From the NCBI GenBank assembly GCA_964416425.1, contig CAYQEC010000002.1, forward strand, positions 102,701-166,700: DNA of 64,000 bases, given 5' to 3'. Source of the stretch: an uncultured Acidimicrobiaceae bacterium (GTDB lineage: Bacteria; Actinomycetota; Acidimicrobiia; Spongiisociales; UBA5794). Each line of letters opens with the position of its first letter. The first letter of the stretch is position 1. The notes beneath the pieces are model-generated. The model searched no databases and was not told where the DNA came from. It worked only from the letters and a program-made list of their open reading frames with translations. Of the stretch, positions 10,034 to 36,742 are shown in pieces. The position numbers and the translations under genes were made by a program.

Positions 10034-10070
10034 CTGAACCCCCTCCCTCTCGGTTGTGACTGCCGGAACT

Positions 10071-11510: not shown

Positions 11511-11556
11511 GAGGCGGCATTCTCGCGGGTCGCCCCGCCGCCTCGCACCCGGCCGC

Positions 11557-11991
11557 TCATGACGGGAAGCGTCCCGCCAGGCGGTCCAGGTTCCTCCGCC
11601 ACACCACGGTGAGCACCCGGGCGCCGACCAGGGCTCCGAGGCGGCCCCCCAGGTACCACGGGAATCGCAGCTCCTCCCGCCAGGTGAACCGGGTGGCCCC
11701 GCCCTCCTCCTCGAGGACGAACTCGCCGCTCCCGGTCACCAGCCCGACGTGGTGAATCGCCATGCGGTTGGGCGGGTCCCAGGCGACGAACTCCATGACG
11801 TCGGCGAGCCGGAACGGGCCGATCCTCGTCGCCACCTCCAGGCGGGTTCCGACGCCGCGGCGCTGCGCGGTGAGGAAGGTGATGCGTTCGGCGTCTGCCA
11901 TCCATTCGACATGGGATTCGAGTGCCGCGAGGTCGGCCCAGACACCGGCGACGGGGGCGGCGATGAGCCGGCTCACCTCGACGCGAGCCAT
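11557..11991 (-). CDS. SRPBCC family protein (about 144 aa)
   Basis: Internal start MARVEVSRLIAAPVAGVWADLAALESHVEWM... is the classic SRPBCC start; the longer N-terminus in the listed ORF is unlikely to be real. Confidence 0.65.
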   Translation of the reverse strand: MARVEVSRLIAAPVAGVWADLAALESHVEWMADAERITFLTAQRRGVGTRLEVATRIGPFRLADVMEFVAWDPPNRMAIHHVGLVTGSGEFVLEEEGGATRFTWREELRFPWYLGGRLGALVGARVLTVVWRRNLDRLAGRFPS

Positions 11992-12180
11992 CGCCACCTC
12001 GCCTCGCCGCGGACCGGAGCCGGGCCGGTCTCCCCATGGCGCCGGGCGGGAGCAGACCGCACTGCTGAGAAGTCCTCCCACATGTCCGGTGCGAGACTAC
12101 CGGCCGGAACGGCTCCCCGGAGGACGTCCACGGTCTCACCGCGGCGCCGGCATAGAATCGCTGGGAGGAATCGGAGGAAA

Positions 12181-13075
12181 GTCGTTGGAGGAGCCAGCCG
12201 AGCATTACGCGTCCCTGCGGGAGCGCGTCATGGGGGAACGCGGGGTCATCATGGTGGTCGGCGGCGCCGACACCGGGAAGACGACCATGTCCCGCTACCT
12301 GCTGGAGGGCGCCCTCGACGAGGGAATGTCCGTTGCCTTCATCGACGCCGACGTGGGTGTGTCGACCGTGGGCCCTCCCGCCTGTGTCGGGCTCCGCTGG
12401 GTGCGGAGCCGCGACGACCTGGCCAATTTGGGTGACGCCGACGAGCTGCGCTTCGTCGGATCCACCCAACCCCAAGGGGTGGTGCTGCCCCACGTGGTGT
12501 CGACGGCGACCCTGGTCGACATCGCCCGCCAGGAAGCCGACTTCATCGTGCTCGACACAACCAGCGTCGTCTCCGGCGTGCTGGGGCAGACGCTCAAGTA
12601 CCACCTGATGGAGGTGTGCGCCCCCACGCTGGTGATCGTCATGCAGCGGGGCGAGGAGATGGAGCCGATCATCGGCATGCTGCGCCGCTTCCTGTCGGCC
12701 CGGATCGCCAAGGCGGCCCCGCCCCCCGACCTGGTCCCGGCCAGTCCCGTGGAGCGGAGGGCCCGCCGCATCGCCTCGTTCCGCAAGGCGCTGGAGCCGC
12801 CGCTGCAGCGCTGGAGGGTCCACACCTCGGTCTTCGCCCCGACGCTGCCGGAGGGGTTCGACGTCTCCCGTCTCGCCGGGATGCTGGTCGGCGTCCAGGA
12901 TGGCGAGGGACGGTGCCTCGGCCTCGGCGCCCTCGAATACGACCAGGGCGTGGTCCGGGTCGCCACCCATTTCGGAGAGCAGATGAAGGGGCTCCGCCTC
13001 GGATCACTCCAGATCAACCTCGACACCTACGAGACCACCAGGGTCCGGCTGAGCGAGCTGATCTTCGGGTTCTGA
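12181..13075 (+). CDS. Clp1/Grc3-like P-loop NTPase (polynucleotide 5'-kinase family) homolog
   Basis: ...GVIMVVGGADTGKTTMSRYLLEG...VAFIDADVGVST... gives a Walker A GxxxxGKT and a D-x-D motif as in the Clp1 P-loop domain. Start assigned to TTG at ~12181 after GGAGGA. The upstream part of ORF 11762..13075 overlaps the convergent SRPBCC gene. Confidence 0.55.
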
Positions 13076-13485
13076 CCCCACCCATCACGGGCGGGTGGCC
13101 GGAGGACGTGGCAAAGCCCAAGGAACCTCCGCAGCCTGTCCCCGCACTTCCCCGAACGAGGTCTGGTTGCTCGAGCCCCTTGGGCTTTACCGTTTCGACC
13201 TTACGAAGACGGAGCGCACGATTCAAGTGCGTCGTTGGGGCCGATTCCACCCCGGATCCTCACTCCCAGATCGGGGTTGGCGCGCCAATTGCGGCTACTT
13301 CCCGCTCAAGCCGGCGGCTTCTCCACATATCCACAGCAATCCACAGGGTCTTGTGCACAACGGCGTGTCGACAAGTCCGGCACCGCGTTTTTTCGCGCCC
13401 GCCGCGGTCGTGTCGAATCGTGTGCCGATCCGGTGGGAACGCTTCAGGCGGGACCCCTGAAATGGGCCATCCGGGCCGGACGAGA

Positions 13486-14721
13486 TCACCGGGCGGTGAT
13501 GCCGTAGTACAGCTCGATGAGGTGGTCGACCGTCTTCGCCCAGGAGAAGCGGTCGGTGAACTCGACCCCACCCCGAGCGAGTTTGGTGGCGAGGCCGGGG
13601 TCACCCAGCACCCGTGTGAGCGCCTCGGTGTAGGCGGCCGGCTCGTGGCCGTCGACCAGGAAGCCGGAGCGCCCGTCCTCGACGGCGAAGCGGAGCCCGC
13701 CCACCGCAGCGGCGACCACCGGCAGCCCGCATGCCTGGGCCTCGGCCGCCACCAGCCCGAACGACTCACTGCGGGACGACATGACGAGGACATCGGCGCC
13801 CTGATAGAAGCGCGCCAGCTGCTCGTGGGGTTGCGGTGGGAGGAAATGGACCCGGTCGGCGACGCCGAGCACGGAGGCGAGCTCACGGAGCCGGGTCAGC
13901 TCGGGTCCCCCGTCCGGGCCACTGGGGCCGCCGACCACCACCAGATGAGGTGGCCGGAACGTTGCCGACTCCGGGATGGCGGCACAGGCCGCGATGGCGA
14001 TGTCGACCCCTTTCAGCGGCTGGATCCGCCCGACGAAGAGCACGACCGGGTCGTCACCCAGGTAGTCGTGGAGACCGGTCCAGACCCGGGCGGCGCGCCG
14101 CTCTCCCGGCCGGAAGACCGCGTGGTCGATGCCGGGAGGCGAGGTGCAGAGTCGCTCCGGACTGGCGCCGTAGTGCTCGAGTAGGTCGTCGTATTCGGCC
14201 GGGGTCGAGGCGATGACGCAGTTGGAGCGGGCGATGACCTCCTGCTCGGCCACGGTGCGGATCAGCCCGGCGCCGGGCTCGCCGGGCCGGCGATTCAGGT
14301 CCTTGATCCGCCCCAGAGTGTGGAACGAGTTGGCGAGCGGCAGCCCGAGGCGTTCCTTGAGGATCACCCCCGACCAGCCCGAGAGCCAGTAGTGGCTGTG
14401 GAGCAGGTCGAACGTGAGGCCGTTGGCGTCGATCCAGCCGAGCGTCTCTTCGGTGAAGTCGCCGACCAGGCCCGGCATCTGGCGCATCGGCACCGGTGCC
14501 GCCGGTCCGGCGGTGACGTGGACCACCCGGTAGCCGGGCTGCACGTGGACCACCTCGGGGTCGGATCCGGTGCGTCGGGTGAACACCACCACCTCGATGC
14601 CGCGCCCGGCGAGCGTCTTCGCCACCTCGTTGACGTACACGTTCATACCCCCGGCGTCGCCGATGCCGGGGAGCTGGACCGGGCAGGTGTGGAGCGACAG
14701 GAAGGCGACCCGGCTGATCAC
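13486..14721 (-). CDS. GT4 family glycosyltransferase, MshA-like (D-inositol-3-phosphate glycosyltransferase-type)
   Basis: MISRVAFLSLHTCP...GGMNVYVNEVAKTLAGRG...EAQACGLPVVA... matches the MshA/GT4 signature with the EX7E region. Confidence 0.8.
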   Translation of the reverse strand: MISRVAFLSLHTCPVQLPGIGDAGGMNVYVNEVAKTLAGRGIEVVVFTRRTGSDPEVVHVQPGYRVVHVTAGPAAPVPMRQMPGLVGDFTEETLGWIDANGLTFDLLHSHYWLSGWSGVILKERLGLPLANSFHTLGRIKDLNRRPGEPGAGLIRTVAEQEVIARSNCVIASTPAEYDDLLEHYGASPERLCTSPPGIDHAVFRPGERRAARVWTGLHDYLGDDPVVLFVGRIQPLKGVDIAIAACAAIPESATFRPPHLVVVGGPSGPDGGPELTRLRELASVLGVADRVHFLPPQPHEQLARFYQGADVLVMSSRSESFGLVAAEAQACGLPVVAAAVGGLRFAVEDGRSGFLVDGHEPAAYTEALTRVLGDPGLATKLARGGVEFTDRFSWAKTVDHLIELYYGITAR

Positions 14722-15667
14722 GCCCCACCCCCGAACGCCCCGGTGATGCGGTAGAGCGGGCGGGGACGCGCCCCGAGCCGGAACTTGTAGGGCTCACTGC
14801 CCTTGAGGAAGTCGAACCGTGGCAGTCCGCGCCGGATGGCGTGCTCGATCAGCAGGTTCACCAGCACGATCCCCGGCGAGGCGGTGGCCGCCTCCGGCTC
14901 GAAGGCGGAGTTGTAGAGGTAGTACCCGGCGGCGTCCTCGAACCCGAACCCGGCGGCCACCGCCACCCCGTCCCCACCGCGGAGCACGTCGATGACCCCA
15001 CCGACGTCGTCGTGGAGGGCGGCGAAGAAACGGGCCCGGGCCGGCGACATGAACCCGCCCTTCTCCCCGTCGGCGCGACGGTGGATCGCGACGAAGGCCT
15101 CCACCGCCCCCGGTCCTTGCTCACGCTGCAGGCGCGGCGCGCCGCGGGCGGCCTCGAACCGTCGCCCTTTCCGCCGTACTTCGTGACGCTGCTTCTTGTC
15201 GAGGCCGGCCAGGTAACGGTCGGGGTCGTCGGGTAGGTCGAGCACCGCCGCCACTTCGTGCCGTTCCGGTTCGACCCGGCAGCCGGCCGCCGCCAAGCCG
15301 GCGGCGACGACGTCGGCCGCCTCGCGCGGCAGGCTGCCGAAACGGAAGGGGGTCCCGCCGGGCAGGGCGGCGGCGAGCTTCGCCACCGCCGCCGGGACCT
15401 GGTCTCCGAGCGGGCTGTGGTAGTCGGTGAGGTCGGGGTCACCGAGGAACTCGAGGCGGTCGGCGTGCCGGTACAGCGGCAGCAGCGCGTCGCCGGCGTC
15501 GGCCAGCAAGAGTTCGGCGCCGGCAGGGCGGCAGTACTCCCACCAGGCGCGAAGGAAGGCGCGCCGCGGGAACGGACCGGTGTGTGAGGCCACCGGGTCC
15601 AGTTCGAAGGCGGGGGTCGCCCAGTCGTCGTGAACGTGCATGCCCTTCCCCGTGCGGTTCGTGGTCA
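14718..15667 (-). CDS. GNAT-type acyltransferase (FemAB/CelD-like Acetyltransf_6 family)
   Basis: MTTNRTGKGMHVHDDWATPAFELDP...; C-terminal ...YYLYNSAFEPEAATASPGIVLVNLLIEHAIRRGLPRFDFLKG... is typical of the BioF2-like/CelD GNAT family. 4-nt overlap with the downstream GT4 gene. Confidence 0.65.
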
Positions 15668-16609
15668 TTCCCCCGGCTCCGGTCCGAGCGAGCCGACGAC
15701 GACGCCGCCGCCCCAGACCGGGGGCCGGGCGACGTCGCACAGGGAGTCCCACGCCACCTGTGGCAACAACTCGAGGCACCGGATTGCTTCCATCAACGCC
15801 GCCAGCGCCACCGACGCCGATCCCTCGTGGCTTTTGGCGGCGACGCCGATCCCGTGTCGCCCGGCGGCGACGAGACCGGCCGCTCCTACCTTGACCGGCC
15901 CACCCCACCAGGCGCCGAGCCGCCCGTCGCCGCGCAGGTTGTCGGCGACCAGGGCGGGGTAGCGGTGCATGGCGGTGGCGGCGGCGGCGAAGCGCCGGTC
16001 CTCCGTGAGCCGGGCGAACGCCCGTGCCAGGCCCCGGATCGATCCCCGCAGGGTGGGAGCGCCGCAGCCGTCGACACCGGCCGGTTCGGGATCGACGCCG
16101 GTCACGTCGGCGACCACCTCGCGCACCTGTCGTTGCAGCGGATGATTCGGATTGAGGTAGCTCTCCTCCGGCCACCCGGCGGCGCGACAGGCCCGGAGCC
16201 AGGCGGCGTGCTTGCCGGAGCAGTTGTGAAACAGCGGGCGGGGCGCCCGGTGACCGCGGGCAACCAGGATGTCACGGGCGGCGTCGCTCAGTGGCCAGGC
16301 CGGTGGGCAGCGCAAGGCGGCTGTGGTGAGTCCGACGCCGCCCAGGATCGAGGAAACGAGGGCGAGGTGGGCCGGGAACCCCGAATGGCTGGCACAGGCC
16401 AGCGCCATCTGCTCGGGGGCGAGACCGGCCCCGGCCTCATCGGCGACGGTGGCTTGGAAGGGCTTGATCGCTGACCGGTAGAAGAGCGGGAGGTCGGGTT
16501 CACCCCACACCGCCAGGACCCGGCCGGAGGAGTCGGCGGCGACGGCGCTGGCGACGTGGAACGCTTCGGCGAGTCCGGATCGAACCGTGCGGATGCGGAG
16601 CGGGGGCAC
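15665..16609 (-). CDS. asparaginase II (Asparaginase_II, PF06089-like) family protein
   Basis: ...CASHSGFPAHLALVSS...HNCSGKHAAWLRAC... are conserved motifs of the Rhizobium-type asparaginase family. Confidence 0.65.
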   Translation of the reverse strand: MPPLRIRTVRSGLAEAFHVASAVAADSSGRVLAVWGEPDLPLFYRSAIKPFQATVADEAGAGLAPEQMALACASHSGFPAHLALVSSILGGVGLTTAALRCPPAWPLSDAARDILVARGHRAPRPLFHNCSGKHAAWLRACRAAGWPEESYLNPNHPLQRQVREVVADVTGVDPEPAGVDGCGAPTLRGSIRGLARAFARLTEDRRFAAAATAMHRYPALVADNLRGDGRLGAWWGGPVKVGAAGLVAAGRHGIGVAAKSHEGSASVALAALMEAIRCLELLPQVAWDSLCDVARPPVWGGGVVVGSLGPEPGE

Positions 16610-17128
16610 TCAGCTCGGCTGCAACAGCTCGTCGACGGTGGCGAGGCCCTCCCGGTACCGCCGGATCAGCTCGGCATGGATCAGCTCATGTGCTTCGTAG
16701 ACGCCGCGGCGTTGCCGGGAGACTTCGCTCTCGATCTCGGTCAGGGCCGCCTGGATGTCCTCCAGCTCGGCGTCGTCGATGCCGGGGAGGTGGGTGAGGA
16801 AATCGTCGCCGAGCACCCGATCGACCGAGCGGCGTCCCGTTGCGGGTGGCTGCGGCGGATCGATGGGCAGCGCCTTGGGGAGGGTGCTGCGCTGCCCGCC
16901 GTCGTCGGCGTCGCTCCCGGTCAGGATCTCCGGCAGCGCCTCGATCAGGCTGCGCTCTTCCTCGCCGGCCCGGCGCCGCATCTCGAAGGCGAGCAGGTCC
17001 ATGCGTCCGTGGAGGAGGCGCCGGTAGTAGGAGAGTTCGGTATCCAGCTCGTCACACAGCTTGCGGCGTTTGCGCAGCTCGTCGAGCGGCACGGTCTCGA
17101 CGTCGGCGACGAAGTCCGGGTCGAGCAC
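16610..17128 (-). CDS. acidic coiled-coil protein, RsiG-like (possible c-di-GMP-binding anti-sigma factor homolog)
   Basis: 172 aa, no TM. Two helices carry near-matches to the RsiG E(X)3S(X)2R(X)3Q(X)3D motif: DTELSYYRRLLHGRMD and ESEVSRQRRGVYEAHE. Confidence 0.45.
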   Translation of the reverse strand: MLDPDFVADVETVPLDELRKRRKLCDELDTELSYYRRLLHGRMDLLAFEMRRRAGEEERSLIEALPEILTGSDADDGGQRSTLPKALPIDPPQPPATGRRSVDRVLGDDFLTHLPGIDDAELEDIQAALTEIESEVSRQRRGVYEAHELIHAELIRRYREGLATVDELLQPS

Positions 17129-17200
17129 GATGTCGATGCGCCTGCGTTGGTGGTTCAGAGCCGATCCTTTCTGTGCCAGGCCGAGGCTACCAAGGAACCG

Positions 17201-18297
17201 TCACGGACACGCCGCCCGCAGGGTCGGGTACGGGTTCACCGGAGCACCGCCTCCGGGGTGGAGCTGGAAATGGAGGTGGGTCGCGCCGCCGATGGCGTTC
17301 CCGGTGTTGCCGACGTAGCCGAGCACGGTGCCCTTGGCGACGCGTTGGCCGGTGGCGATCCCAGGCGCATAACCGTCGAGGTGGGCGTAGTAGTAGGTGG
17401 CCTCGGCCCCCACCAGGAAGGCGGTGATGCCACCGAGGCTGTTGCTCTTGAGCCGCACGGTGCCGGCGGTGACGGCGACCACCGGGGTGCCACGTGGAGC
17501 GAACAAGTCGTTGCCCTTGTGGGTACGGCCGCCGGAACGGGGGAATCCCCAGTCGTTGATGAAGCTGGCGCCACTCGTGATCGGGCAGATGAACCCGGGA
17601 ATGGAGCCTGCGGGGAGGCCGCCGGCGGCGCCGGCCTTGCGGGCGGCCTCGGCGACCTTGCGGGCCCGCTCCGCCGCCTCGTACTGGGCGAGCACGTCGG
17701 AGTAGTTGGCCTTGGCATCGGCGTAGGCCGCGGCCTGGGCCTGCCTGGCCTCGTCGAGGCGCCCGACGTTGGCCTCGGCCTGGGCGCTCAGTTCCGCCAC
17801 CTCGGCCTCGTTGGCCTTCAACTCCTCTTTGCGGCGATCGAGATCCTGTTGCAGCGCCTCGAGACGGTCGAGCGTCACGAGGTTGGCGTCGGTGGCCCGC
17901 TCGATGAGCACCTGGCGGGTCAGGATGTCCTGGATGGATCCGGCGTCCATGGCGAGGTCGAGGATGCCGGTGCCCCCGTTGATGTAGGCCTCGACGACGA
18001 GATCCTGGGCGAGCTGCTTGAGATCCCGCACCTCGGCTTCGTCCTGCTTGATGCGGTCGACCATGCGGGTGATGCGATAGGTGAGGTCCTCGAGCCGGGC
18101 GTTGATGTCCTGGAATTCGGCCAGGGCCGCCTCCAGGTCGGCATCGGCGTCGGCGAGCTTCTGGTAGGCGGCGTCCCGTTCGGTCTTCGCCTGGTCGACC
18201 TGGCTCTTGGTCTGCGCGGTCGCCCCCACCGGCGTTACCGCGAGCAGGGCGAGGATCAACAGCGGGGTGAGCGCACGAATACGGCGCGTACATCGCA
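17201..18297 (-). CDS. M23 family metallopeptidase with N-terminal coiled-coil (EnvC-like)
   Basis: Signal peptide MRCTRRIRALTPLLILALLAVTPVGATA; long coiled coil; C-terminal ...HKGNDLFAPRGTPVVAVTAGTV...YYYAHLDG...GNTGNAIGGATHLHFQL is the M23 (LytM) HxxxD/HxH signature. Confidence 0.8.
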
Positions 18298-18401
18298 TGG
18301 CGGGAATCGAGGATAGCCCTTTCCCGGAAGCTGAGCGCATCCGCTGGATGTTTCGCCGTACTGGCGAGTGTGCTCCCGGGGCCACCCGCCCGAGGCGGCC
18401 C

Positions 18402-19328
18402 TCACCCGTCCCGCGCCGGCGCGCCGGCCCCGGGACGCCGGGTGGCGACGATGCCGACCGTCACCAGCACGATTCCGGCGAGCTGGCCGGGTCCGGGCAC
18501 CTCCGCCAGGAAGATCCAGCCGAGGACGGCGATCTGGATCAGCATGGTGTTGTTGATGGCGACCGACTCGGTGGCGGTGAGGTGGCGGAGGGAGAGGTTC
18601 CAGAGCGTGAAGGCGAGGGCGGTGTTGACCACGGCCAGCCACAGCACGATCAGCAGCGCCCGCCCGGTGAGGTGGGGCCAGCCCTCGGTGACGAGGCCGG
18701 CGAGGAGCAGCGCCCCGGCCCCGACCGTCATCGACACCGTGGTGGTGACGAGGGGAATGGCGCCCTCCATGCGGTGGACCCGGCGACCGAGCAGCGCCGA
18801 GGCGGCGTTGGCGAGTAACCCGACGCCGGCGGCCACCATGCCGGCCACGGTGGCCCCGAGCGAACCGGCGAAGTAGAGGCCGGCCCCCACCGCCACCAGG
18901 GTGGCGCCGCCGACCTGGCGCCCGCTGGGGCGTTCCCCGAGGGAGCGTCCCGCCAGGCCGGCGACCACCAGCGGGGTGAGGGAGAGCACGAGGCTGGTGG
19001 TGGCGGCCGGCTGATGGGCGAGCGCTACGAATTGGGCTCCCTGGGTGACGGTGTAGAAGACGAGGCCGAGTGCCACCAGCTCGCCCCACCCGCGCCGCAG
19101 CGCCGACCGCATGCCGGCCCGTGCCGCCGGGCGGGACAGCACCGTGACCAGGAGCACCAGCGCCGCCGCGGCGTAGCGCAGCCCGGCGAACATGATCGGC
19201 TCGAGTCCCTCGTTGTCGAGCCCGAAGCGGATGATCACCCACGAGGAGCTCCACAGCACGGTGACGAGGAGAGCGAGCCAGGTGGCGCGCCGGCTGCTGC
19301 GGCGCTCCGCCCCGAGTCGCGGACCCAT
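18402..19328 (-). CDS. EamA/DMT family transporter
   Basis: 308 aa, 10 TM, duplicated EamA-type halves. Confidence 0.75.
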   Translation of the reverse strand: MGPRLGAERRSSRRATWLALLVTVLWSSSWVIIRFGLDNEGLEPIMFAGLRYAAAALVLLVTVLSRPAARAGMRSALRRGWGELVALGLVFYTVTQGAQFVALAHQPAATTSLVLSLTPLVVAGLAGRSLGERPSGRQVGGATLVAVGAGLYFAGSLGATVAGMVAAGVGLLANAASALLGRRVHRMEGAIPLVTTTVSMTVGAGALLLAGLVTEGWPHLTGRALLIVLWLAVVNTALAFTLWNLSLRHLTATESVAINNTMLIQIAVLGWIFLAEVPGPGQLAGIVLVTVGIVATRRPGAGAPARDG

Positions 19329-19352
19329 CGCGTCGCTCCCGAGCCCGGCTCG

Positions 19353-20345
19353 TCAGCCGAACAGCCAGATCGCCGCCCAGTAGGCGGCGGCGCCCAGTGT
19401 CGCCCCGTCGAACATCGTCAGCAGGCCGGGGGCTCGGGCGGTGTGCACCACCGAGCCGGTGCGGAGCAGCGACCCGAGCAGGCGGCCCGTGATGAGGCCG
19501 GCCGCCGCCGCCACCGCCGCCAGCAGCAGGTGCCCGACCGAGATCGTGTCGACCACGAGGCCCACGGCGAGCCCGGCGCCGAGCGCCCCGAGCAGGGTCG
19601 CCAGGTTGGGGTCGAGGCCGGCGATCTCGCCGCCGCTGCGATGCACCGCCCAGGCGGCGAGTCCTGCCACCGATGCGATGATGAGGAAGGCGCTCACCTC
19701 GGGCGCGCTGCGCATCCGCACCAGGGTGAGGCCCCCGGTGGCCATGGCCCCGGCGGCGCTCACCAGCACCGAGATCGTGGCCACCTCCAGGCTGCGGTGC
19801 CCGGAATCGACCACCGTCCACACCAGCGTCACCATCACCGCGACCGCCAGCCCGCCGGCGAACCCGGCGACGCCCCACCGGTAGGCGCCGTTGGCGGCGG
19901 CGGTGGCGCCGATCATGAGCGGGATCACGTTGAGGGTGGCTCCCCGCCGGTTGAGGGCCTCACTGGCGTCCCACAGCCACGCCAGGGCGGTGCCGACGGC
20001 GACGAACACGAACGTCTGGAGGTCGATGAGATTGGCGATGGCGACGGCGACCAGCAACGAGAGCACCAGACCGGCCTGGGTCAGGTCGCCTTCGGGCTGG
20101 GCCACCATCGCCCCACCAGACACCGGGGGGATGAGGGCGACCTCGTCGCCGGCGCCGATGCCGGTGGCGACGTTGGCCTGCTCGCCGTTGACCCAGATCT
20201 TGGCGGAATCCACTCCCAGGGTGAAGTCGGCGCCGAAGCGCTCCCCGGCCGTGGCGAGCACTTCACCCACCGTTGCCCCGTCGATCTCGACCTCCGCCGC
20301 CCCGGCGGCTTCCCGGAGGTTGGCGAAGAGCCGCAGGGTGGCCAT
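19353..20345 (-). CDS. MoaD/ThiS-like ubiquitin-fold domain (ending in GG) fused in frame to a 6-7 TM membrane domain
   Basis: N-terminus MATLRLFANLREAAGAAEVEIDG...GDEVALIPPVSGG is a canonical MoaD sequence with a terminal Gly-Gly, continuing without a stop into AMVAQPEG... and about 245 aa of hydrophobic helices. Confidence 0.6.
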   Translation of the reverse strand: MATLRLFANLREAAGAAEVEIDGATVGEVLATAGERFGADFTLGVDSAKIWVNGEQANVATGIGAGDEVALIPPVSGGAMVAQPEGDLTQAGLVLSLLVAVAIANLIDLQTFVFVAVGTALAWLWDASEALNRRGATLNVIPLMIGATAAANGAYRWGVAGFAGGLAVAVMVTLVWTVVDSGHRSLEVATISVLVSAAGAMATGGLTLVRMRSAPEVSAFLIIASVAGLAAWAVHRSGGEIAGLDPNLATLLGALGAGLAVGLVVDTISVGHLLLAAVAAAAGLITGRLLGSLLRTGSVVHTARAPGLLTMFDGATLGAAAYWAAIWLFG

Positions 20346-20430
20346 CAGTTGCCGCCCCGTGCAACACCGACGGTGTCGTGCGCGTTCTGCATGGTCCGGC
20401 GCAGCGTACTACCGGCCGGGCGCCGGAGCC

Positions 20431-21231
20431 TCAGACCGGGCTGGAGTGGCTGCGGATCATCCCGACCAGCTCGGCCTGGGAATGGACCTCGAGCTTGCGG
20501 AAGATCGACTTGAGGTGGTTGCGCACGGTGTGCTCGCTCACCTCGAGCCGGGATGCGATCGAGACCACTCGATGGCCCCGTAGCAGCTCGTTGACCACGT
20601 CGCGTTCCCGCCGTGACAGCCGTTCCAGCTCGGGGGCCACCGCGGCTCCCGCCACCGGCTCGGTGTTGCCCACCGCCACGCCCAGCTTGCTCAGCTCGCC
20701 GGCGATGCGGCGGATGCCGTCTTCCAACGCCTGGCGCCGGCCGTCCCCGTTGAGCCGGGGCTCCACCGGCGTCGGGCTGAAGATCCACATCAGCGCCGTC
20801 GAGTGCTCGTTACCGTTCCGCATCGGGATCAGCTTGAGTTGGGCGCTGACCTGGTTGCCGCCGACGGTGATGAGCGACCAGTCGGTCACGATCGTCTCCC
20901 GACCGAACCGTCCCCCGATCGCCCGGTTGATGTAACGCTGATAGGCGCGCTGGCAATCCTGCGGGATCCACTCCGGCGCTGTCTCCGGTGTCATCTCACC
21001 GCACGCCAGCGGCCCCACGATCTGATCGAGCGCCGGATTGGTGTACGTGCACTTGCCGTGCTCGTCGGTGATCAAGACGCCGTCGGTCATCGCTTCGAGG
21101 AGCGCTTGAAGCGGCACCACGATGGTGCCTGTTCCATTGCGGGCCGTCATGTGAGCCTCGCACGCGCACACCGATGGATGCTGCCCCAGAGCATCGTCCA
21201 CCCCCTGTGTTGCCCCACCTTGCGCGGACAT
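20431..21231 (-). CDS. PAS domain-LuxR family transcriptional regulator
   Basis: PAS-like TIVVPLQALLEAMTDGVLITDEHGKCTYTNPA...; C-terminal LSRRERDVVNELLRGHRVVSIASRLEVSEHTVRNHLKSIFRKL is a LuxR HTH. An alternative start at the internal MTARNG (~21150) is possible. Confidence 0.75.
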   Translation of the reverse strand: MSAQGGATQGVDDALGQHPSVCACEAHMTARNGTGTIVVPLQALLEAMTDGVLITDEHGKCTYTNPALDQIVGPLACGEMTPETAPEWIPQDCQRAYQRYINRAIGGRFGRETIVTDWSLITVGGNQVSAQLKLIPMRNGNEHSTALMWIFSPTPVEPRLNGDGRRQALEDGIRRIAGELSKLGVAVGNTEPVAGAAVAPELERLSRRERDVVNELLRGHRVVSIASRLEVSEHTVRNHLKSIFRKLEVHSQAELVGMIRSHSSPV

Positions 21232-21435
21232 CTGGCCTGCGTCCGCTTTCTTCGGACGAGCGTACCTGTCCTGAGGGGGACCTGGAAGGAGGGTTTGGGC
21301 TGGCCCATTGTGGACTAGTCAGCCACACCATCCGGTCGGGTCGTGCGAGGCCGCCCCCGATCGTGGGGATGCGAGGGCCGGGGGGGGTGACCGGCGGACC
21401 CGGCAGGACCGCCGTGTCCTAGTGTCGCGGGGGAC

Positions 21436-22281
21436 ATGAACGTTCCGATCTCCTTCCTCTCCGACTTCGGCCGCGCCGACGAGTTCGTCGGCGTCGTGCA
21501 CGGCGTCATCGCCCGCATCGCCCCCGAGGTGCGCGTCGTCGACGTCGGCCACGACTTCCCCCGCGGCGACGTGCGAGCCGCCGCCCTCGGCCTGCTGCGG
21601 GCGATCCAGTACCTGCCCCAGGGTGTCGCCCTCGCCGTGGTCGACCCCGGGGTGGGCACCGAACGGCGGGCGCTGGCGGCCCGAACCGAATGGGGGACCC
21701 TGATCGGACCCGACAACGGCCTGCTCGCTCCCGCCGTCGCCATGGTGGGCGGCGCCGACCTGATCGTGGCGATCGAGAACCCCGAGTTGCGTCTCCCCGC
21801 CGAGGGCGCCACCTTCGCCGGGCGCGACCTCTTCGCACCGGCCGCGGCAGTGGTCGCCTCCGGGCAGGCGGCGATGGAGCAACTCGGCCCTGAGGTCGAC
21901 CCGAACACGGTGGTGCCGCTGATGCTCCCCCTCGTCGAGCGGGACGCCGGGACCCTGCACGGCGAGATCCTCTGGATCGACCACTTCGGCAACGCCCAGA
22001 CCAACATCTCGCCCGACGACCTGGGGGCGGCCGGCATCGCGCCCGGCAGCGAGGTCGTGGTCCGGATCGGCAGTGTCGAGTATCGCCTCACCTGGGTGCG
22101 GGTCTACGGCGAGGTGGAGCGGGGTGAGGGTCTGTTCCATGTCGACTCGTACGGTCAGATCGCCCTGGCGGTGCGGGAGGGTCGCGCCGACGAGGCGTTC
22201 CCGATCGCGGTGGGGACCACGCTCACGTTGCGGGGTCCCGGGACGCCGGCGGCCGAGCTTCAGAGCCCGTCGGCCAGTTGA
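21436..22281 (+). CDS. SAM hydroxide adenosyltransferase (DUF62/fluorinase-chlorinase superfamily)
   Basis: MNVPISFLSDFGRADEFVGVVHGVIARIAPEVRVVDVGHD... matches the conserved N-terminus of this family. Confidence 0.8.
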   Translation: MNVPISFLSDFGRADEFVGVVHGVIARIAPEVRVVDVGHDFPRGDVRAAALGLLRAIQYLPQGVALAVVDPGVGTERRALAARTEWGTLIGPDNGLLAPAVAMVGGADLIVAIENPELRLPAEGATFAGRDLFAPAAAVVASGQAAMEQLGPEVDPNTVVPLMLPLVERDAGTLHGEILWIDHFGNAQTNISPDDLGAAGIAPGSEVVVRIGSVEYRLTWVRVYGEVERGEGLFHVDSYGQIALAVREGRADEAFPIAVGTTLTLRGPGTPAAELQSPSAS

Positions 22282-22377
22282 AGTTGCACGACGAAGGCGC
22301 CGACGATGAGCAGCAGGAGCAGCAGCAGGACGAGGGCGGTGGCGGGTCGCATGGCGCGCCGGACGATAGTGGGACCG

Positions 22378-22667
22378 TGAACGACGCCCGCACGCTCCGG
22401 TTCGTCACCAGGGACGGGTGCGGCCGGTGCGCCGAATCCCTCGCCGCGATCCGGCGGGTCGCCACCCGGCTCGCGATCCCGGTCGTGGTGGAGGACGTCG
22501 ACGCCTCTCCGGACCTCTACGAGGCCTACACCGACCGGGTCCCGGTGGTGCTCGACCGGGGCGGGGGCGTAGTGGCCGAGGGGCGCCTCACCGGCCGGCA
22601 GGCCCTGTGGACCGTGCTCGCGGCCCGGATGCGACGGGGCCGGTCGCCGGGGACGCCGCAGGTCTAG
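22378..22667 (+). CDS. glutaredoxin/thioredoxin-fold family protein (CxxC)
   Basis: ...LRFVTRDGCGRCAESLAAIRRV... has CGRC in a glutaredoxin-like context. Start uncertain (GTG ~22378). The low-complexity acidic N-terminus of ORF 22278..22667 is doubtful. Confidence 0.5.
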
Positions 22668-22699
22668 AGCCCTCCGGCGGCCACTATCCTCCGCTCTCG

Positions 22700-23320
22700 G
22701 TGAAAGGCCCGATTCCCTCTGCCACGGTGGCGCGGCTCCCGGTGTACCTGCGGTGCCTCGGCGACCTCCCCACGACGCAGCCGACCTGCTCGTCGGAGCA
22801 GCTCGCCGCGATCGCCGGCGTCAACCCGGCCCAGGTGCGCAAGGACCTGTCCCACATCGACGCCAGGGGGGTGCGCGGCGTCGGCTACGGCATCGACGAG
22901 CTGCGCCGTGAGCTGCGCCGTGCCCTCGGCCTCGTCAAGAGCTACGCGGTGGCCATCATCGGCGCCGGCAACCTCGGCACCGCCCTCTCCAACTACCCCG
23001 GGTTCGCCGGGTGGGGATTCGAAGTGAAGGCGATCTTCGACGTCGATCCCTCCAAGGTGGGGGAGGAGGCCGACGGCCTGGTGGTGGAGTCCCTGGCGGA
23101 TCTCGAGAAGATCGTGGCCGAGCGATCCATCTCGATCGGGATCGTGGCGACGCCGGCCCATGCCGCCCAGGACGTCGCCGACCGGCTGACGCGGGCCGGG
23201 GTGCGCTCGATCCTCAACTTCGCCCCCGCCATCCTGCGCCGGGTCGACGGCGTCGAGGTGCGGCGGGTCGATCTCTCCACCGAGCTGCAGATCCTGGCCT
23301 ATCACCTGCAGCGCGACTGA
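22700..23320 (+). CDS. rex: redox-sensing transcriptional repressor Rex (NADH/NAD+ sensor)
   Basis: VKGPIPSATVARLPVYLRCLGDL... (winged-helix N-terminus), then Rossmann ...VAIIGAGNLGTALSNY..., C-terminal ...RRVDLSTELQILAYHL. GTG start at 22700 in frame with ORF 22418..23320. Confidence 0.8.
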   Translation: MKGPIPSATVARLPVYLRCLGDLPTTQPTCSSEQLAAIAGVNPAQVRKDLSHIDARGVRGVGYGIDELRRELRRALGLVKSYAVAIIGAGNLGTALSNYPGFAGWGFEVKAIFDVDPSKVGEEADGLVVESLADLEKIVAERSISIGIVATPAHAAQDVADRLTRAGVRSILNFAPAILRRVDGVEVRRVDLSTELQILAYHLQRD

Positions 23321-23394
23321 GTTCGCCGCAGGCCGCGGCCTTTGCGGCGACGGCGCGGTAGGGTCGGGAGACCTCGGAGACAGGAGTTCGATCG

Positions 23395-24711
23395 ATGCCA
23401 ACGCGCGTACTGATCCTCGGTGCCGCCGGACGTGATTTCCACGATTTCAACACGCTCTACCGCGGCCGTCCCGAATACGAGGTCGTCGGGTTCACCGCCA
23501 CCCAGATTCCCGACATCGGCGGCCGCCGCTACCCGCCGGAGCTGGCCGGACCGGGTTACCCGGACGGGATTCCGATCCACCCGGAGGACCGGCTCGAGCA
23601 GCTCATCGCGGAGCAGGCGATCGACCTCGTCCTCTTCGCCTACTCGGACGTCTCCCACGAGCACGTCATGCACCTCGCCGCCCGGGCCGTCGCCGCCGGC
23701 GCCTCATTCTCCCTGGCGGGCGACGCCGCCCTTATCCCGTCGTCGAAGCCGGTGGTGGCGGTAACCGCCACCCGGACCGGGAGTGGGAAGAGCCAGACGA
23801 GCCGCCGCATCCGGGGCATCCTCGCCGCCGCCGGGAAACGAGTCGCGGTGATCCGCCATCCGATGCCGTACGGTGACCTGCTGCGGCAGCGGGTGCAGCG
23901 CTTCGCCTCGTTCCAGGATCTCGTCGCGGCCGACGTCACGGTCGAGGAGCGGGAGGAGTACGAGCCGTACCTGCGCCAGGGTGCCGTCGTCTACGCCGGG
24001 GTCGACTACGAAGCCATCCTGCGCACCGCCGAGGAGGAGGCGGACGTGATTCTGTGGGACGGCGGCAACAACGACCTCCCCTTCTTCCGGACCGATCTCG
24101 CGCTGTGCGTCGTCGACCCGTTCCGGGCCGGGCACGAGCTGCGCTACTGGCCGGGAGAGGCCAACCTCCGGCGCGCCGACGTCGTCATCATCAACAAGGT
24201 GGACACCGCCCCGGCGGAGGGGGTCGAGCTGGTGCGCCGCAACGTGGCGGCGGCGGCTCCGGAGGCGGTGGTGATCGAGGCGGCGTCACCGATCACCGTC
24301 GAGCATCCGGAGCTGATCACCGGGAAGCGGGTGCTCGTGGTCGAGGACGGTCCCACCATCACCCACGGCGGCATGCCGGAGGGGGCCGGGGCGGTGGCGG
24401 CGCGCCGTCACGGGGCGGCCGACCTGATCGACCCCCGTCCCTTCGCCACAGGCTCACTCGCCGACGTCTACGCCGCCTACCCCCATATCGGTCCGGTGCT
24501 GCCGGCGATGGGATATGGCCACGAGCAGCTCGCCGAGCTGGCGGCGACGATCCGGGCCGCCGCCCCGGAGACGGTCGTGATCGGGACGCCGATCGACCTC
24601 GCTCGCATCGTCGACCTCGGCGATCTGCTCCGCACCAGGGTGTTCTACGAGCTGGAGGAAGTGGCCGGCGGTCCCACCCTCGAGCAGGTGCTGGGGCCGT
24701 TCCTCCGCTGA
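23395..24711 (+). CDS. cyclic 2,3-diphosphoglycerate synthetase (CPGS)-like protein
   Basis: MPTRVLILGAAGRDFHDFNTLYRG... and central ...VAVTATRTGSGKSQTS... P-loop-like segment, as in CpgS-family proteins. Confidence 0.6.
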   Translation: MPTRVLILGAAGRDFHDFNTLYRGRPEYEVVGFTATQIPDIGGRRYPPELAGPGYPDGIPIHPEDRLEQLIAEQAIDLVLFAYSDVSHEHVMHLAARAVAAGASFSLAGDAALIPSSKPVVAVTATRTGSGKSQTSRRIRGILAAAGKRVAVIRHPMPYGDLLRQRVQRFASFQDLVAADVTVEEREEYEPYLRQGAVVYAGVDYEAILRTAEEEADVILWDGGNNDLPFFRTDLALCVVDPFRAGHELRYWPGEANLRRADVVIINKVDTAPAEGVELVRRNVAAAAPEAVVIEAASPITVEHPELITGKRVLVVEDGPTITHGGMPEGAGAVAARRHGAADLIDPRPFATGSLADVYAAYPHIGPVLPAMGYGHEQLAELAATIRAAAPETVVIGTPIDLARIVDLGDLLRTRVFYELEEVAGGPTLEQVLGPFLR

Positions 24712-24745
24712 CGGCGGAGGTGACCGCCGCCGAGCCGAGGCCGGC

Positions 24746-25270
24746 TCAGTCGCGGTCCTGTTCCTTCTCGTAGCGGTCGAGGGCCACCAGGAACATGAGG
24801 AACAGGATGAGCGACGCCACGGCCAGCCCGATGGCGGGGATCCGCATCTGGAAGGCGTTGAGGCCGGCGAGGTTGGAGGGCCGCAGCCCGCGCGGGGCGT
24901 AGACGACGAACAGCATCGAGCCCACCACCAGCCACCCGAAGACGGCGGCGCCGGTCACGAGGAAGGCGAGACGGCGCCCGAGATTGGTGGAGAGCACCAG
25001 GAAGCCGGATCCCACGAACGCCACCACCGCCACCACGGTGATGAGGATGCCCTTGGCGGCGACGGAGAACCCGGTGGGGTCGCCGGCGTCGTCGACCTGC
25101 CCGAAGACCTTCTCCCACGCATCGCCGGCGATGCTGCGCACCAGCGGGATGAAGGCCAGCACCGCCAGGACGAGCAATGTCAGCCCCAGCTTCTCGAGCG
25201 AGCTGAGCCCGCGCTCGTCCCGGACGATGGCAGCCAGGCGATCCGGCAGGCGGCGGGTGCAGCGCATCAC
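24746..25270 (-). CDS. small 4-TM membrane protein, last gene of the cytochrome b6/Rieske operon
   Basis: GTGATG start overlaps the stop of the upstream cytochrome c gene; hydrophobic. Confidence 0.5.
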   Translation of the reverse strand: MMRCTRRLPDRLAAIVRDERGLSSLEKLGLTLLVLAVLAFIPLVRSIAGDAWEKVFGQVDDAGDPTGFSVAAKGILITVVAVVAFVGSGFLVLSTNLGRRLAFLVTGAAVFGWLVVGSMLFVVYAPRGLRPSNLAGLNAFQMRIPAIGLAVASLILFLMFLVALDRYEKEQDRD

Positions 25271-26880
25271 AAGGACCGCTCGTAGGTGACGATGAGCTCG
25301 ATGTCGTCCCGGCTCAGGATCTCCCCGAACGCCGGCATGCCGCCCACGCCGCTGAGACCGTTGACCCCGTAGTGGGAATCGGCCTCGGCGCCGCGGATCA
25401 CGAAGGTGACGTGGTCCTCGACGTCGGGGAACTGGGTGATGGCCCGCCCGTCGGTGAGCGCCGGCGCCCAGGCCCCGGTCCCCGCCTCTTGCTCGAAGGC
25501 GACCCCGGCGCTGTAGCCGGCGGTGTGACAGCGGGCGCAGTAGGCGTTGAACAGACCCACGGCGCGGGTGGCGTCGGCCAGCTCGAGGCCGGTGCGGGTG
25601 GCGACCTCCTCGAAATCGACGTCCCAGGACCGATCCTGCAGCGCCTTCTCGAGGAAGGCGATTCCCTCGTTGGCGCTCTCCAGGAACCGGTCCTGCCGTT
25701 CGCTGATGACCTCGAGCTGGAGGTGGGTGGTTTCGAGCTCCTGGTAGAAGTGGTGGGCCGAGTCGAGGTCCGCCACGGGGCGGCCCCGCTCGTCGCTCAT
25801 CGTGAAGGCGTTGTCCGGCGCCAGTTCGAGAGCGAACCGGTCGCTGGTGGTGGGCACGACCTCGAGGGTACGGTTCCCGTTCTCGTCGACCGATTCCTGC
25901 ACGGCGCGGGTCGTCACCGTGTCGAACGTGATGGCGGCATCGGCGGTGAGGGCCTCTTCGGCGGCGTCGGTGAGGCCGTCACGGTCGCGGTCCGGGCCGG
26001 GATTGTCGCAGCTCGTCCCCACCAGCTCGGCCGAGGCCTCGGTGCAGGTTCCGTCGCCGGAGAGCAGGGCGGCGATCTCGTCCGGCATGTCCTGGATCGT
26101 GGCGTACTGGCTCGGGGCGTCGAGGATGTCGTCCCGCGCCGCGTTCTGCTCGACGAGCCGCTTGCCGATCGTCTCCTCGGCGTTCTCGATCCGCTGCAGC
26201 GCCAGGGAGACGGCACCTTCGATCTTGTCGAGCGCCGCGCTCTGCGGGACCTGGATGCTCTTCAGGTAGGCCACCACCTGGTCGATCTGCTGCATCGTCA
26301 TCGAGCCGCCGCCGGCGAGCCCGGCCGCCGGCATCGGGGTGCCGTGGCGGCCGTAGGTGATCCAGTGCCGCACCTCGTCTTCGGTGTAGCGGAAGAGCAC
26401 GTCGTTGATCGACGGCGCCACCCACGACGTGTCGAGGCCGGAGCGGGCCTCGATGAAGGCGGCTCCGCCGCCTCCGCCGTCGGCGCCGTGGCACACCGTG
26501 CACTCGAAGAGCTTCCACCACCGGAGGCCCTCCTCGAGGTAGTTCTCCTCGACCTGCTGGGCCGCCTCGGCCTGGCGGTGCGACTCCCCGACGAAGTAGA
26601 CGGGGAGCAGGATGGCGAGCACCGCGGCGGCGATCGCCGCCGCCGAGAGCACGTGGGTGAGGCGGGTGGTTTCCAGCGCTTCGTCGTCGTCGTAGGGGTC
26701 GAGGTTCGGCGGAGGCGTCTCGGGGGGACGCCGACGCCGCCGGCTGGTGATGACGAGAAATCCCAGACCCAGCAGTAGCACTGCGACGGCGAGGATCAGC
26801 ACCACCGATCCGAGGCCGACGTTGCTGGGCCCGGCCGGCGTGGCGGGCTCGGCGGTGGCGAGGAGGGGCAGTGGGGTCAC
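25267..26880 (-). CDS. membrane-anchored dihaem c-type cytochrome (cytochrome c subunit of the Rieske/cyt b complex)
   Basis: Two CXXCH motifs (CTVCHG, CARCHT); N-terminal TM helix; GTG start at 26880 overlaps the Rieske stop (GTGA). About 537 aa, with a 250-aa insert between the two haem domains. Confidence 0.75.
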   Translation of the reverse strand: MTPLPLLATAEPATPAGPSNVGLGSVVLILAVAVLLLGLGFLVITSRRRRRPPETPPPNLDPYDDDEALETTRLTHVLSAAAIAAAVLAILLPVYFVGESHRQAEAAQQVEENYLEEGLRWWKLFECTVCHGADGGGGGAAFIEARSGLDTSWVAPSINDVLFRYTEDEVRHWITYGRHGTPMPAAGLAGGGSMTMQQIDQVVAYLKSIQVPQSAALDKIEGAVSLALQRIENAEETIGKRLVEQNAARDDILDAPSQYATIQDMPDEIAALLSGDGTCTEASAELVGTSCDNPGPDRDRDGLTDAAEEALTADAAITFDTVTTRAVQESVDENGNRTLEVVPTTSDRFALELAPDNAFTMSDERGRPVADLDSAHHFYQELETTHLQLEVISERQDRFLESANEGIAFLEKALQDRSWDVDFEEVATRTGLELADATRAVGLFNAYCARCHTAGYSAGVAFEQEAGTGAWAPALTDGRAITQFPDVEDHVTFVIRGAEADSHYGVNGLSGVGGMPAFGEILSRDDIELIVTYERSL

Positions 26881-27752
26881 AGGCAGGAAGGTCCTTGCGG
26901 GTAGGAGGCGGTCTTGTGGTGGGCGCGGGCGGTTTGAAAGATGGTGCCCGTGTTGATGATGAGGTCCCCGGCGTCGTTGACCGCCACCTCGAAACGGTCC
27001 ATGTTGCGAGGGGCCGGGCCGGCCTCGTACTCGCCGTGGAAGTTGTACCTGGATCCGTGGCAAGGACACTCGAATCCCTGTGAGGAAGTGCACTCCGGCA
27101 CCCGGCAGCCGAGGTGGACGCAGCGTTGCCACAGGGCCATCACACCCGGTTCGACCCCGCCCCCGGCGAGCACCGGGAGGCCTTCGAAGGAGCTGTCGGG
27201 AACGTCCTTCTCGTCCATGACGACCAGCCAGGACTGGGCGGGGGGGATGAACTTGGGGATGAGGGTGCCGTCGTCCTGCACGATCTCGTCGCGGAGGGCG
27301 ACGAGGTTGCCGGCGTTGATCGGGGTGCCGAAGCCTCCCTTCAGCTTGGGCCAGAGGAAGGAGAGCATGCCCAGGCCGAGTGAGGCGAAGAACGCCCCGG
27401 CGAAGAGCCCGAGGCTTGCCCGGTTGAGGAACTTGCGGCGGGTGACCCCCATCTCGGCGGCGGAGACCGGGATGCGGGGGATGGCGGCCGCCGGCTCGTC
27501 GCCGGGAAGCGGCGCCGCCGCGGCGGGGACACTCTCGGCAGCCTCCGCTGCGGCGGCGGGAGCGTCGTCCGCGGCGGGTTCCAGGGCCACGGGCTCCGGG
27601 GCGACGTCGGGCGTGGCGTCGGCGGCGGCGGGCTCGAACTCCCCGACGACAGGCCCGGTCGGGCCGCGGCGCCACGCGACGGTGAAGACCGCCACCGCCA
27701 GCAGTGCGGCGGCCGAGATCAGGGCGATCGCAAAGATGGTGGTGGCACTCAT
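26877..27752 (-). CDS. Rieske [2Fe-2S] iron-sulfur protein of a bc/b6f-type complex
   Basis: CVHLGC...CPCHGS Rieske boxes; N-terminal TM helix; Ala/Pro-rich linker. Confidence 0.85.
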   Translation of the reverse strand: MSATTIFAIALISAAALLAVAVFTVAWRRGPTGPVVGEFEPAAADATPDVAPEPVALEPAADDAPAAAAEAAESVPAAAAPLPGDEPAAAIPRIPVSAAEMGVTRRKFLNRASLGLFAGAFFASLGLGMLSFLWPKLKGGFGTPINAGNLVALRDEIVQDDGTLIPKFIPPAQSWLVVMDEKDVPDSSFEGLPVLAGGGVEPGVMALWQRCVHLGCRVPECTSSQGFECPCHGSRYNFHGEYEAGPAPRNMDRFEVAVNDAGDLIINTGTIFQTARAHHKTASYPQGPSCL

Positions 27753-36732: not shown

Positions 36733-36742
36733 AGGAAGCGAC

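Follow-up and report, generated by a model that had tools for sequence, protein, structure and literature searches.

Some ubiquitin-like (Ubl) carriers of the ThiS/MoaD family continue past their diglycine (GG) and need trimming by a protease of the JAMM/Mec+ type, and they are known to be encoded beside a JAMM protease and an E1-like enzyme. The gene described here encodes a domain of this family that reaches its GG and then runs on in frame into a membrane protein. It lies on a stretch of 64,000 nucleotides (hereafter the window; GenBank assembly GCA_964416425.1, contig CAYQEC010000002.1, positions 102,701 to 166,700 of the forward strand) from an uncultured Acidimicrobiaceae bacterium, and positions below are counted from the first letter of the window unless a locus is named. 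On profile alignments and structure models, the membrane part of the protein is a very divergent homologue of CdsA, the phosphatidate cytidylyltransferase. In the Thermotoga enzyme (TmCdsA) the N-terminus is cytoplasmic and a cytoplasmic funnel is lined by the helix M1 and the C-terminal domain. Its Mg-K centre is held by Asp219 and Asp249, and alanine mutants of D144, K167, D219, K226, D246, and D249 each lose >98% of the activity (PMC4083444). The pairing of a Ubl domain with a CdsA-fold domain has not been described in the comparative-genomics surveys of Ubl proteins (Iyer et al. 2006; Makarova and Koonin) or in the full-text literature that was searched. It is a new domain architecture, and the membrane domain represents an unannotated, catalytically remodelled family of CdsA paralogues. 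The cytidylyltransferase-Jab idea of Makarova and Koonin was also considered and appears to concern a different nucleotidyltransferase.

The Fusion Gene and Its Conservation

The gene and its parts are as follows.

19353..20345, minus strand: fusion gene, 330 amino acids (aa) plus stop, a complete open reading frame (ORF) with a MoaD/ThiS beta-grasp, a linker and a CdsA-fold membrane domain
20112..20345, minus strand: MoaD/SAMP1-type beta-grasp, residues 1-78, ending IPPVSGG (from Pfam ThiS, PDB profile matches and Foldseek)
20112..20117, minus strand: codons of Gly77-Gly78 (GGT GGG), read from the sequence, with Ala79 next in frame; the diglycine is invariant (GG in 168/168 full-length relatives)
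20088..20111, minus strand: variable linker, residues 79-86, from GG to the first membrane helix, of low AlphaFold confidence
19356..20087, minus strand: predicted CdsA-fold membrane domain, residues 87-330 (from hhalign, AlphaFold and Foldseek), with the CdsA metal dyad lost
19407..19487, minus strand: residues 287-313, aligned with the CdsA signature and remodelled relative to it; spans the end of M8, the cytoplasmic A-loop and the start of M9

The ORF at 19353..20345 (minus) is one uninterrupted frame of 330 aa with the N-terminus MATLRLFANLREAAG. Residues 70-78 read ALIPPVSGG, and the frame goes on with Ala79 for 252 more residues, which are hydrophobic and form a helical bundle in the AlphaFold model. 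An earlier note on this DNA, made from the letters alone, had described an N-terminal MoaD/ThiS beta-grasp ending in GG and followed by 245 residues of transmembrane helices; the domain is confirmed by Pfam (see below) and so is the continuation into a polytopic membrane domain, the length of which has to be corrected to 252 residues.

The possibility raised in that note, of a sequencing error or of a stop after GG that had been missed, is refuted by the conservation data. According to this explanation, a frameshift or a missed stop joined a moaD gene to a downstream membrane gene. Nothing was found in its support beyond an out-of-frame N-terminal part at one locus (L065) and one truly split lineage. 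Against it, different JGI and Logan samples yield the identical protein, on 18 contigs in total. Of 495 relatives recovered in a protein search, the top 120 all measure 318-367 aa and have a ThiS domain. The homologous fusions that the note had proposed to look for were found by scanning a single genome for each GTDB species: [IL]PPVSGG stands in frame with the membrane domain at 63/63 loci, nearly all of them labelled as metagenome-assembled genomes (MAGs) of Acidimicrobiia, Acidimicrobiaceae or Actinomycetota, with a few bins under other or generic labels. The motif [ILV]PPV[SA]GG is kept in 168/168 retrieved family proteins of >=300 aa. Among the in-frame relatives the identity of the membrane domain to that of the window protein drops to 38%, and the G+C content of third codon positions (GC3) is 0.94 over the whole fusion ORF. 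Because the identical protein occurs on 18 contigs and the frame is conserved in 63/63 species and 168/168 relatives, the fusion is genuine and widely conserved in uncultured Acidimicrobiia.

An internal start for the membrane domain at Met80 of the window protein was considered and rejected, Met80 not being conserved. At locus L065 (about 5734-6741), in a MAG, a frameshift separates the N-terminal two thirds of the ThiS part from the reading frame of the rest, and this is either a pseudogene or an assembly error.

The Beta-Grasp Module

Pfam ThiS (PF02597) matches residues 5-78 with an E-value of 1.9e-11 (44.7 bits against a cutoff of 22.5), and the match spans positions 2-76 of the 76 positions of the profile, thus reaching the last one. 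In a search of the PDB with the family profile, SAMP1 (2l83) was matched at E 7e-10 and Escherichia coli MoaD (1fm0) at E 8e-6, and all matches end at residue 78. The AlphaFold model of residues 1-72 has a predicted local distance difference test (pLDDT) of 78-90 and superposes on SAMP1 and MoaD; Foldseek gives the beta-grasp a probability of 1.00 against SAMP1 3po0 and MoaD 6jbz_B and 1fm0_D. The curated NCBIfam models place it below the cutoffs of the MoaD equivalog (TIGR01682, 39.3 vs 66.15), of SAMP1 (NF041918, 42.6 vs 60) and of the archaeal-type MoaD subfamily (TIGR01687, moaD_arch, 46.7 vs 49.5). Residues 1-78 are therefore classed by sequence as a MoaD-family beta-grasp that is no equivalog of a known carrier. 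No molybdenum-cofactor (Moco) or thiamine context was found around the fusion gene in the neighbourhoods scanned; because of this lack of a Moco context and of the scores below the MoaD and SAMP1 cutoffs, the fusion protein is probably not the housekeeping MoaD. The statement of the earlier note that MoaD function requires a free C-terminal GG holds for sulfur carriers as such. The PADLOC models gave no match for the fusion protein, and the idea of a defence system, including an anti-phage Ubl system, was rejected on that ground.

No other part of the protein is conserved as well as the beta-grasp. Over 62 species its mean pairwise identity is 61%, compared with 47% for the membrane domain and 26% for positions 79-90, and about 30 of its positions, the whole tail among them, are >=95% conserved. 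Such a pattern, with a variable linker between two conserved modules, points to selection acting on the beta-grasp. It also bears on the view that the module is a passive remnant, a former moaD fused by chance and now a mere cytoplasmic spacer. Several losses of the beta-grasp from lineages that have retained the membrane gene would fit this view, but a spacer is hard to reconcile with the higher identity and the strictly conserved positions just given, or with the persistence of the beta-grasp as a separate gene after fission of the fusion, and we consider a passive remnant highly unlikely.

The Membrane Domain Is a Remodelled CdsA Fold

The membrane domain has no match in Pfam, NCBIfam or a PDB profile search with the full-length family alignment, which returned the beta-grasp only. 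The Pfam model of CdsA-type enzymes, CTP_transf_1 (PF01148), fails to detect the domain of the window protein up to E 10, and it reaches one distant relative (P0152) at E 3.1. A hidden Markov model (HMM) of the membrane domain, searched against 1.84 billion cluster representatives (50% identity), matched 106 proteins. Of these, 58 carry a PPVSGG tail upstream, most others are fragments and three are true CdsAs. The true phosphatidate cytidylyltransferases are the weakest matches (E 8.5e-7 to 1e-3); one of them, P0220, matches CTP_transf_1 at E 8e-59. Alignment of a 61-sequence family alignment with a 41-sequence alignment of actinobacterial CdsAs by hhalign gave a probability of 96.9% and E 1.3e-10; the 227 aligned columns are colinear and span almost all of the domain. 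The control with the reversed CdsA alignment gave 0.1% (E 0.46), and with TmCdsA as the master sequence the probability was 95.2%.

Structure prediction led to the same enzyme. The AlphaFold model of the membrane domain alone, built from 69 sequences, has a pLDDT of 94.9 and a predicted TM-score (pTM) of 0.91. The top PDB match in Foldseek is Thermotoga CdsA (4q2g_B; probability 1.00, TM-score 0.63/0.60, 272 columns), and the next match has a TM-score of 0.27. The CdsA match emerged only from a separate model of the membrane domain, built on a deeper alignment; the full-length model had returned from the PDB only beta-grasp matches and poor ones resembling EccD or G-protein-coupled receptors. 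According to DSSP the models have eight helices as against the nine-helix CdsA fold, a 40-residue helix (140-179) aligning with CdsA M3 and M4 together. Because the profile-profile alignment and the structure match agree independently, the membrane part is identified, from sequence and model, as a very divergent CdsA-fold homologue. The earlier note had suggested a Ubl domain tethered to a membrane transporter or enzyme; the fold is of the enzyme type and not that of a transporter, and most CdsA catalytic residues have been lost from it.

The catalytic positions of TmCdsA were mapped onto the family via the PDB alignment and hhalign, with the following counterparts.

TmCdsA D219: R288 (Arg in 50/61)
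TmCdsA E222: G291
TmCdsA S223: S292
TmCdsA K226: R295 (59/61)
TmCdsA D144: A/G/V
TmCdsA K167: within a deleted loop (SPxKxxEG becomes DPN)
TmCdsA D246 or D249: one of the two matched, by D313 (58/61)

The signature GDxxESxxKR...KD...PGHGGxxDRxD of CdsA reads G-R288-x2-G-S292-x2-R295-x-G-x-V-x-H-T-x-R304-x-P-G-x-L-T-x2-D313 in the window protein. The register differs between the two alignments as to whether D313 is the counterpart of D246 or of D249, and the shared PG anchor favours D246. A family-wide set of charged residues, D126, R184, D245, R288, R295, R304, and D313, replaces that of CdsA, and W123, D126, R184, D245, G287, G291, R295, G307, and D313 are >=90% conserved even in the most distant members; because of this conservation, the sequences describe a membrane domain that is not decaying. 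The metal dyad is not intact, and since it and the essential CdsA residues are mostly lost, the membrane domain is probably not a CDP-diacylglycerol synthase. An active CdsA isozyme, which would still make CDP-diacylglycerol or another CDP/CMP-linked lipid under regulation by the beta-grasp, could draw on the homology and common fold and on the retention of S223, of K226 as Arg and of one of D246/D249. However, D219 has become Arg, D144 is Ala, Gly or Val, K167 is deleted, the other of D246/D249 is variable and CTP_transf_1 finds no match even at E = 10, so that an isozyme of this kind is very improbable.

Because the homologous TmCdsA has a cytoplasmic N-terminus and funnel, the beta-grasp would be expected in the cytoplasm, with the conserved charged residues on cytoplasmic helix ends and loops. 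Long soluble N-terminal extensions are also borne by actinobacterial CdsAs such as P0220. By analogy, the tail of the beta-grasp would pass about 10 to 15 variable residues and then lead straight into M1.

Fused, Split, and Membrane-Only Forms

In one lineage the two modules are encoded by separate genes. There, a ThiS gene of 80 aa with the end LPPVSGGDR-stop is followed after 5 nt by a membrane-only gene of 254 aa. In a few lineages the ThiS gene is missing altogether. The loci concerned are as follows.

L075 152-1163; L076 2400-3411; L077; L078: split form, 80-aa ThiS gene and 254-aa CdsA-fold gene, then M23 peptidase and RsiG genes
L011 1476-2249 (P0150); the P0143 contig; L010 390-1190 (P0130): membrane-only members, no ThiS gene upstream

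The 80-aa split protein, with GGDR and GGGR ends, is present on at least 29 contigs (NCBI, Logan, and ENA), and the split arrangement has been seen in three independent SRA samples; since both hold, the gene fission is real. Upstream of the membrane-only members there is an opposite-strand gene or a MaoC dehydratase gene. The M23 and RsiG genes follow the split pair, P0150 and P0143 as they do the fusion; the contig of P0130 is too short to show them. In a distance tree (neighbour joining, CdsA as the root, no support values) the membrane-only and split forms nest inside fused clades. Because of this nesting, the tree places the fusion as ancestral and the fission and the losses of the beta-grasp as secondary, and the idea that membrane-only forms are the ancestral state was rejected. 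The two modules belong together, being fused in most lineages, adjacent genes in one, and without the beta-grasp in a few.

The linker between the modules is nearly constant in length. From G78 to the conserved N105 there are 24-31 residues in 61 of 62 sequences, and 63 in L034 (OY970200.1, an Acidimicrobiia MAG chromosome). In the fusion gene of L034 (about 5395-6711) five or six tandem SVSGG repeats stand directly after IPPVSGG; they create extra internal SGG sites and lengthen the segment from GG to the Asn of M1.

A Proposed Membrane-Docked Unit or a Possible Cleaved Precursor

The overall explanation that we favour, at a probability of about 0.5, is a two-module inner-membrane protein whose modules act as one membrane-docked unit. 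The beta-grasp would lie in the cytoplasm, and its diglycine tail would lead to the opening of a cavity that derives from CdsA and has been remodelled and enriched in arginine. The Ubl or sulfur-carrier-like module would present its tail to this CdsA-derived site for lipid or phosphate binding, or would gate the site, and the unit would work within a conserved cell-envelope block of genes (M23 peptidase, RsiG, asparaginase II, acetyltransferase, and GT4). Coupling of the modules is suggested by the fusion with GG kept in 63/63 loci and 168/168 proteins and by the adjacency of the split genes. It is independent of whether the Gly78-Ala79 bond is cleaved. Cleavage of this bond in the mature protein may occur, and we put it a little short of an even chance.

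Several observations weigh against a docked unit. The lineages that lost the beta-grasp keep the membrane gene in the same context, and therefore the membrane domain has no strict need of it. The repeat-expanded, 63-residue linker of L034 argues against a rigid geometry in cis. The full-length AlphaFold model docks the modules without confidence (pTM 0.67, with a pLDDT <50 for residues 75-86, the linker among them). The synteny around the gene is found within one bacterial class and may reflect shared ancestry, that is, inherited gene order and not a functional link. Finally, an invariant PPVSGG tail is what would be expected of a carrier activated by an E1 enzyme at a free C-terminus.

This last point leads to the alternative of a precursor, in which a JAMM/MPN+ or other protease encoded elsewhere would cut after Gly78 and free a MoaD/SAMP-like protein. 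An E1-like enzyme would then adenylate the freed protein and thiocarboxylate or conjugate it, and the CdsA-fold part would be its partner or a co-translated passenger. In its favour, 168/168 proteins keep the tail [ILV]PPV[SA]GG without exception, whereas the following P1' residue varies (T/A/S/V/E) and the linker is predicted to be disordered. The natural fission occurred two residues past GG, and the linker of L034 tolerates a 35-residue repeat expansion with extra SGG sites. Precedents also exist. MoaX of Mycobacterium tuberculosis needs cleavage to be active (PMC4326299), MoaD-MoaE of Deinococcus radiodurans is cut by DRJAMM (PMC8832034), and cleavage has been proposed for ThiS/MoaD fusions in general by Iyer et al. 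2006 (PMC1779556). On the other hand, no ThiF/MoeB (E1), JAB/MPN (JAMM), MoaE or rhodanese gene was found among about 55 Pfam-annotated ORFs of the window or in the surroundings (about 20 kb) of seven homologues; in the window this search covered the gene calls at 9353-28423 and 30 further ORFs, short ORFs and the ORF at 47557-50610 being left out. The split protein ends in GGDR or GGGR, so that even the separate gene, which could encode a free GG, does not do so. The lack of a Moco or thiamine context and the scores under the MoaD and SAMP1 equivalog cutoffs tell in the same direction, and uncleaved precedents exist as well in 1V8C and EccD. We regard the precursor as a less probable alternative to the docked unit.

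The beta-grasp could also be a substrate. In this proposal the CdsA-derived domain would act enzymatically at the membrane, with the Ubl tail as its substrate or co-substrate, which we regard as improbable. One version would be a counterpart of Atg8 lipidation, and by analogy the Gly78 carboxylate may be linked to the head group of a phospholipid, bound in what used to be the CdsA cavity. In the other, sulfur may be transferred from the Ubl, as a thiocarboxylate, to a membrane lipid or a polyprenyl phosphate. If either were true, the fold of a liponucleotide synthase would have been re-tooled for Ubl chemistry, with arginines replacing the metal dyad.

Gene Neighbourhood

The docked unit favoured above is placed in an envelope context because of its neighbours, which in the window are as follows.

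20431..21231, minus strand: PAS + LuxR/GerE regulator, 85 nt upstream of the fusion gene, present in a subset of lineages
18402..19328, minus strand: EamA-family transporter, 24 nt downstream of the fusion gene, a clade-specific insertion found only in L012-L014 among the 63 loci
17201..18385, minus strand: M23 peptidase with a coiled coil, its HxxxD and HxH motifs intact; usually the first gene after the fusion gene
16610-17128, minus strand: RsiG, conserved co-directional block
15665-16609, minus strand: asparaginase II, same block
14718-15668, minus strand: Acetyltransf_6, same block
13486-14721, minus strand: GT4 glycosyltransferase, same block

Across the 63 species the fusion gene is followed on the same strand by the M23 peptidase, RsiG, asparaginase II, Acetyltransf_6, and GT4 genes, and the order is kept in nearly all. 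An M23 gene also adjoins the membrane-only and split forms. From RsiG to GT4 (13486..17128, minus) the start and stop codons abut or overlap, and no terminator-like site was found between 21231 and 13486 on the minus strand. An Rfam scan of the whole window gave no match. RsiG belongs to a family of anti-sigma factors that bind c-di-GMP. A YbjN-like gene comes after GT4 in relatives, an arrangement reminiscent of the mshA neighbourhood of other actinobacteria. A literature search on the gene context of RsiG and on Ubl proteins with cytidylyltransferases returned nothing specific.

M23 enzymes are Gly-Gly endopeptidases, and the neighbouring peptidase was considered as the protease that would cut at GG. 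It was rejected on topology: the beta-grasp has no signal peptide and the N-terminus of CdsA is cytoplasmic, and the coiled-coil M23 hydrolase is presumably exported. The layout of the M23 protein (17201-18385) recalls regulated cell-wall hydrolases of the EnvC/PcsB type, yet by its motifs it appears catalytically competent.

Other Features of the Window

The remainder of the window carries several genes of separate interest. An ORF of 671 aa at 31256-33271 (plus) contains a COX1 domain (residues 53-441) together with FixO and cytochrome c domains (560-670), and from these domains it looks like a fused oxidase subunit of the CcoN-CcoO type. Two separate sets of complex I (nuo) genes are present, at 35834-47588 (plus) and 59292-62940 (plus). 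The first contains a probable NuoC-NuoD fusion, an ORF of 577 aa in which residues 307-577 are the 49-kDa (NuoD) domain, and the long ORF at 47557-50610 is presumably nuoM/N. The gene at 3539-6982 (minus) encodes a ribonucleotide reductase of class II (B12-dependent), 1147 aa long and with a TSCPD domain, and that at 3-2108 (minus) an MMPL-family transporter. The sole match of a 434-aa ORF at 50646-51950 (plus) is a weak one to bactofilin, below the Pfam cutoff (E 3.6e-5, 24.4 bits vs 27.9).

Implications for Annotation and Function

Relatives of the fusion protein are annotated as "MoaD/ThiS family protein" or "molybdopterin converting factor small subunit". This annotation covers the first 78 residues, leaves the remaining three quarters out of account and suggests a role in Moco synthesis that finds no support here. 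The membrane domain is a CdsA paralogue that appears to have kept its fold and a conserved cytoplasmic cavity while arginines took the place of metal-binding aspartates, which suggests that its ligand or its chemistry is new. The fusion also ties a prokaryotic Ubl domain with a strictly invariant diglycine physically to the fold of a lipid enzyme, and the natural fused, split, and Ubl-less variants offer a clean test of whether bacterial Ubl tails act at membranes. The constant linkage to RsiG and to a coiled-coil M23 peptidase with intact motifs hints at a part in envelope remodelling in a large uncultured class of actinobacteria.

Comparison With Known Systems

Among soluble relatives, SAMP1 and the archaeal-type MoaD proteins (NF041918 and TIGR01687) give the best sequence and structure matches to residues 1-78, and they share the FA-LRE-AG start and the PPVSGG end. 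In contrast to these, the present protein is bacterial, its GG is not C-terminal, its scores lie below the cutoffs and neither E1 nor JAMM was seen in the scanned ORFs. Carriers that are trimmed past their GG are resembled by the GG-DR or GG-GR end of the split form, but no JAMM or E1 neighbour was found in those ORFs. MoaX of M. tuberculosis and MoaD-MoaE of D. radiodurans likewise combine a MoaD-family beta-grasp and an internal GG with a further protein in frame, and cleavage at GG is required or demonstrated there (PMC4326299; PMC8832034). Their partner is MoaE, the enzyme with which MoaD cooperates, in a Moco context, whereas here it is a membrane domain of predicted CdsA fold outside any such context. 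The "MoaD related protein" of Thermus thermophilus (PDB 1V8C) has a MoaD-like beta-grasp, an internal GG and a further domain in the crystallised protein; this extra domain is soluble and of about 80 residues, and no membrane domain is present.

Two membrane proteins complete the comparison. EccD of type VII secretion is actinobacterial and carries an N-terminal cytoplasmic beta-grasp on a multi-helix membrane domain, and it is not conjugated (PMC1779556). The ESX-3 EccD 6sgz_E was in the Foldseek list with a poor superposition (root-mean-square deviation of about 15 A). Its beta-grasp is of the YukD type without a GG tail, and the EccD membrane domain, with its 11-12 helices, has no relationship to CdsA. 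Pfam assigns the present domain to ThiS and not to YukD, and no ESX genes are found in the context of the fusion gene, so that it does not belong with EccD/YukD. TmCdsA (CTP_transf_1, PDB 4Q2E/4Q2G) is similar in the fold of the whole domain, in the colinear profile alignment, in the cytoplasmic N-terminus, which is predicted here, and in a recognisable GxxxxSxx[KR]...PG...D. It differs in its Asp219-Asp249 dyad, which is broken here, in its HGG, where the present family has LLT, and in its SPxKxxEG loop, of which only DPN is left. The Pfam model that recognises TmCdsA is blind to the membrane domain described here, and the fusion protein carries in addition a ubiquitin-like N-terminal domain.

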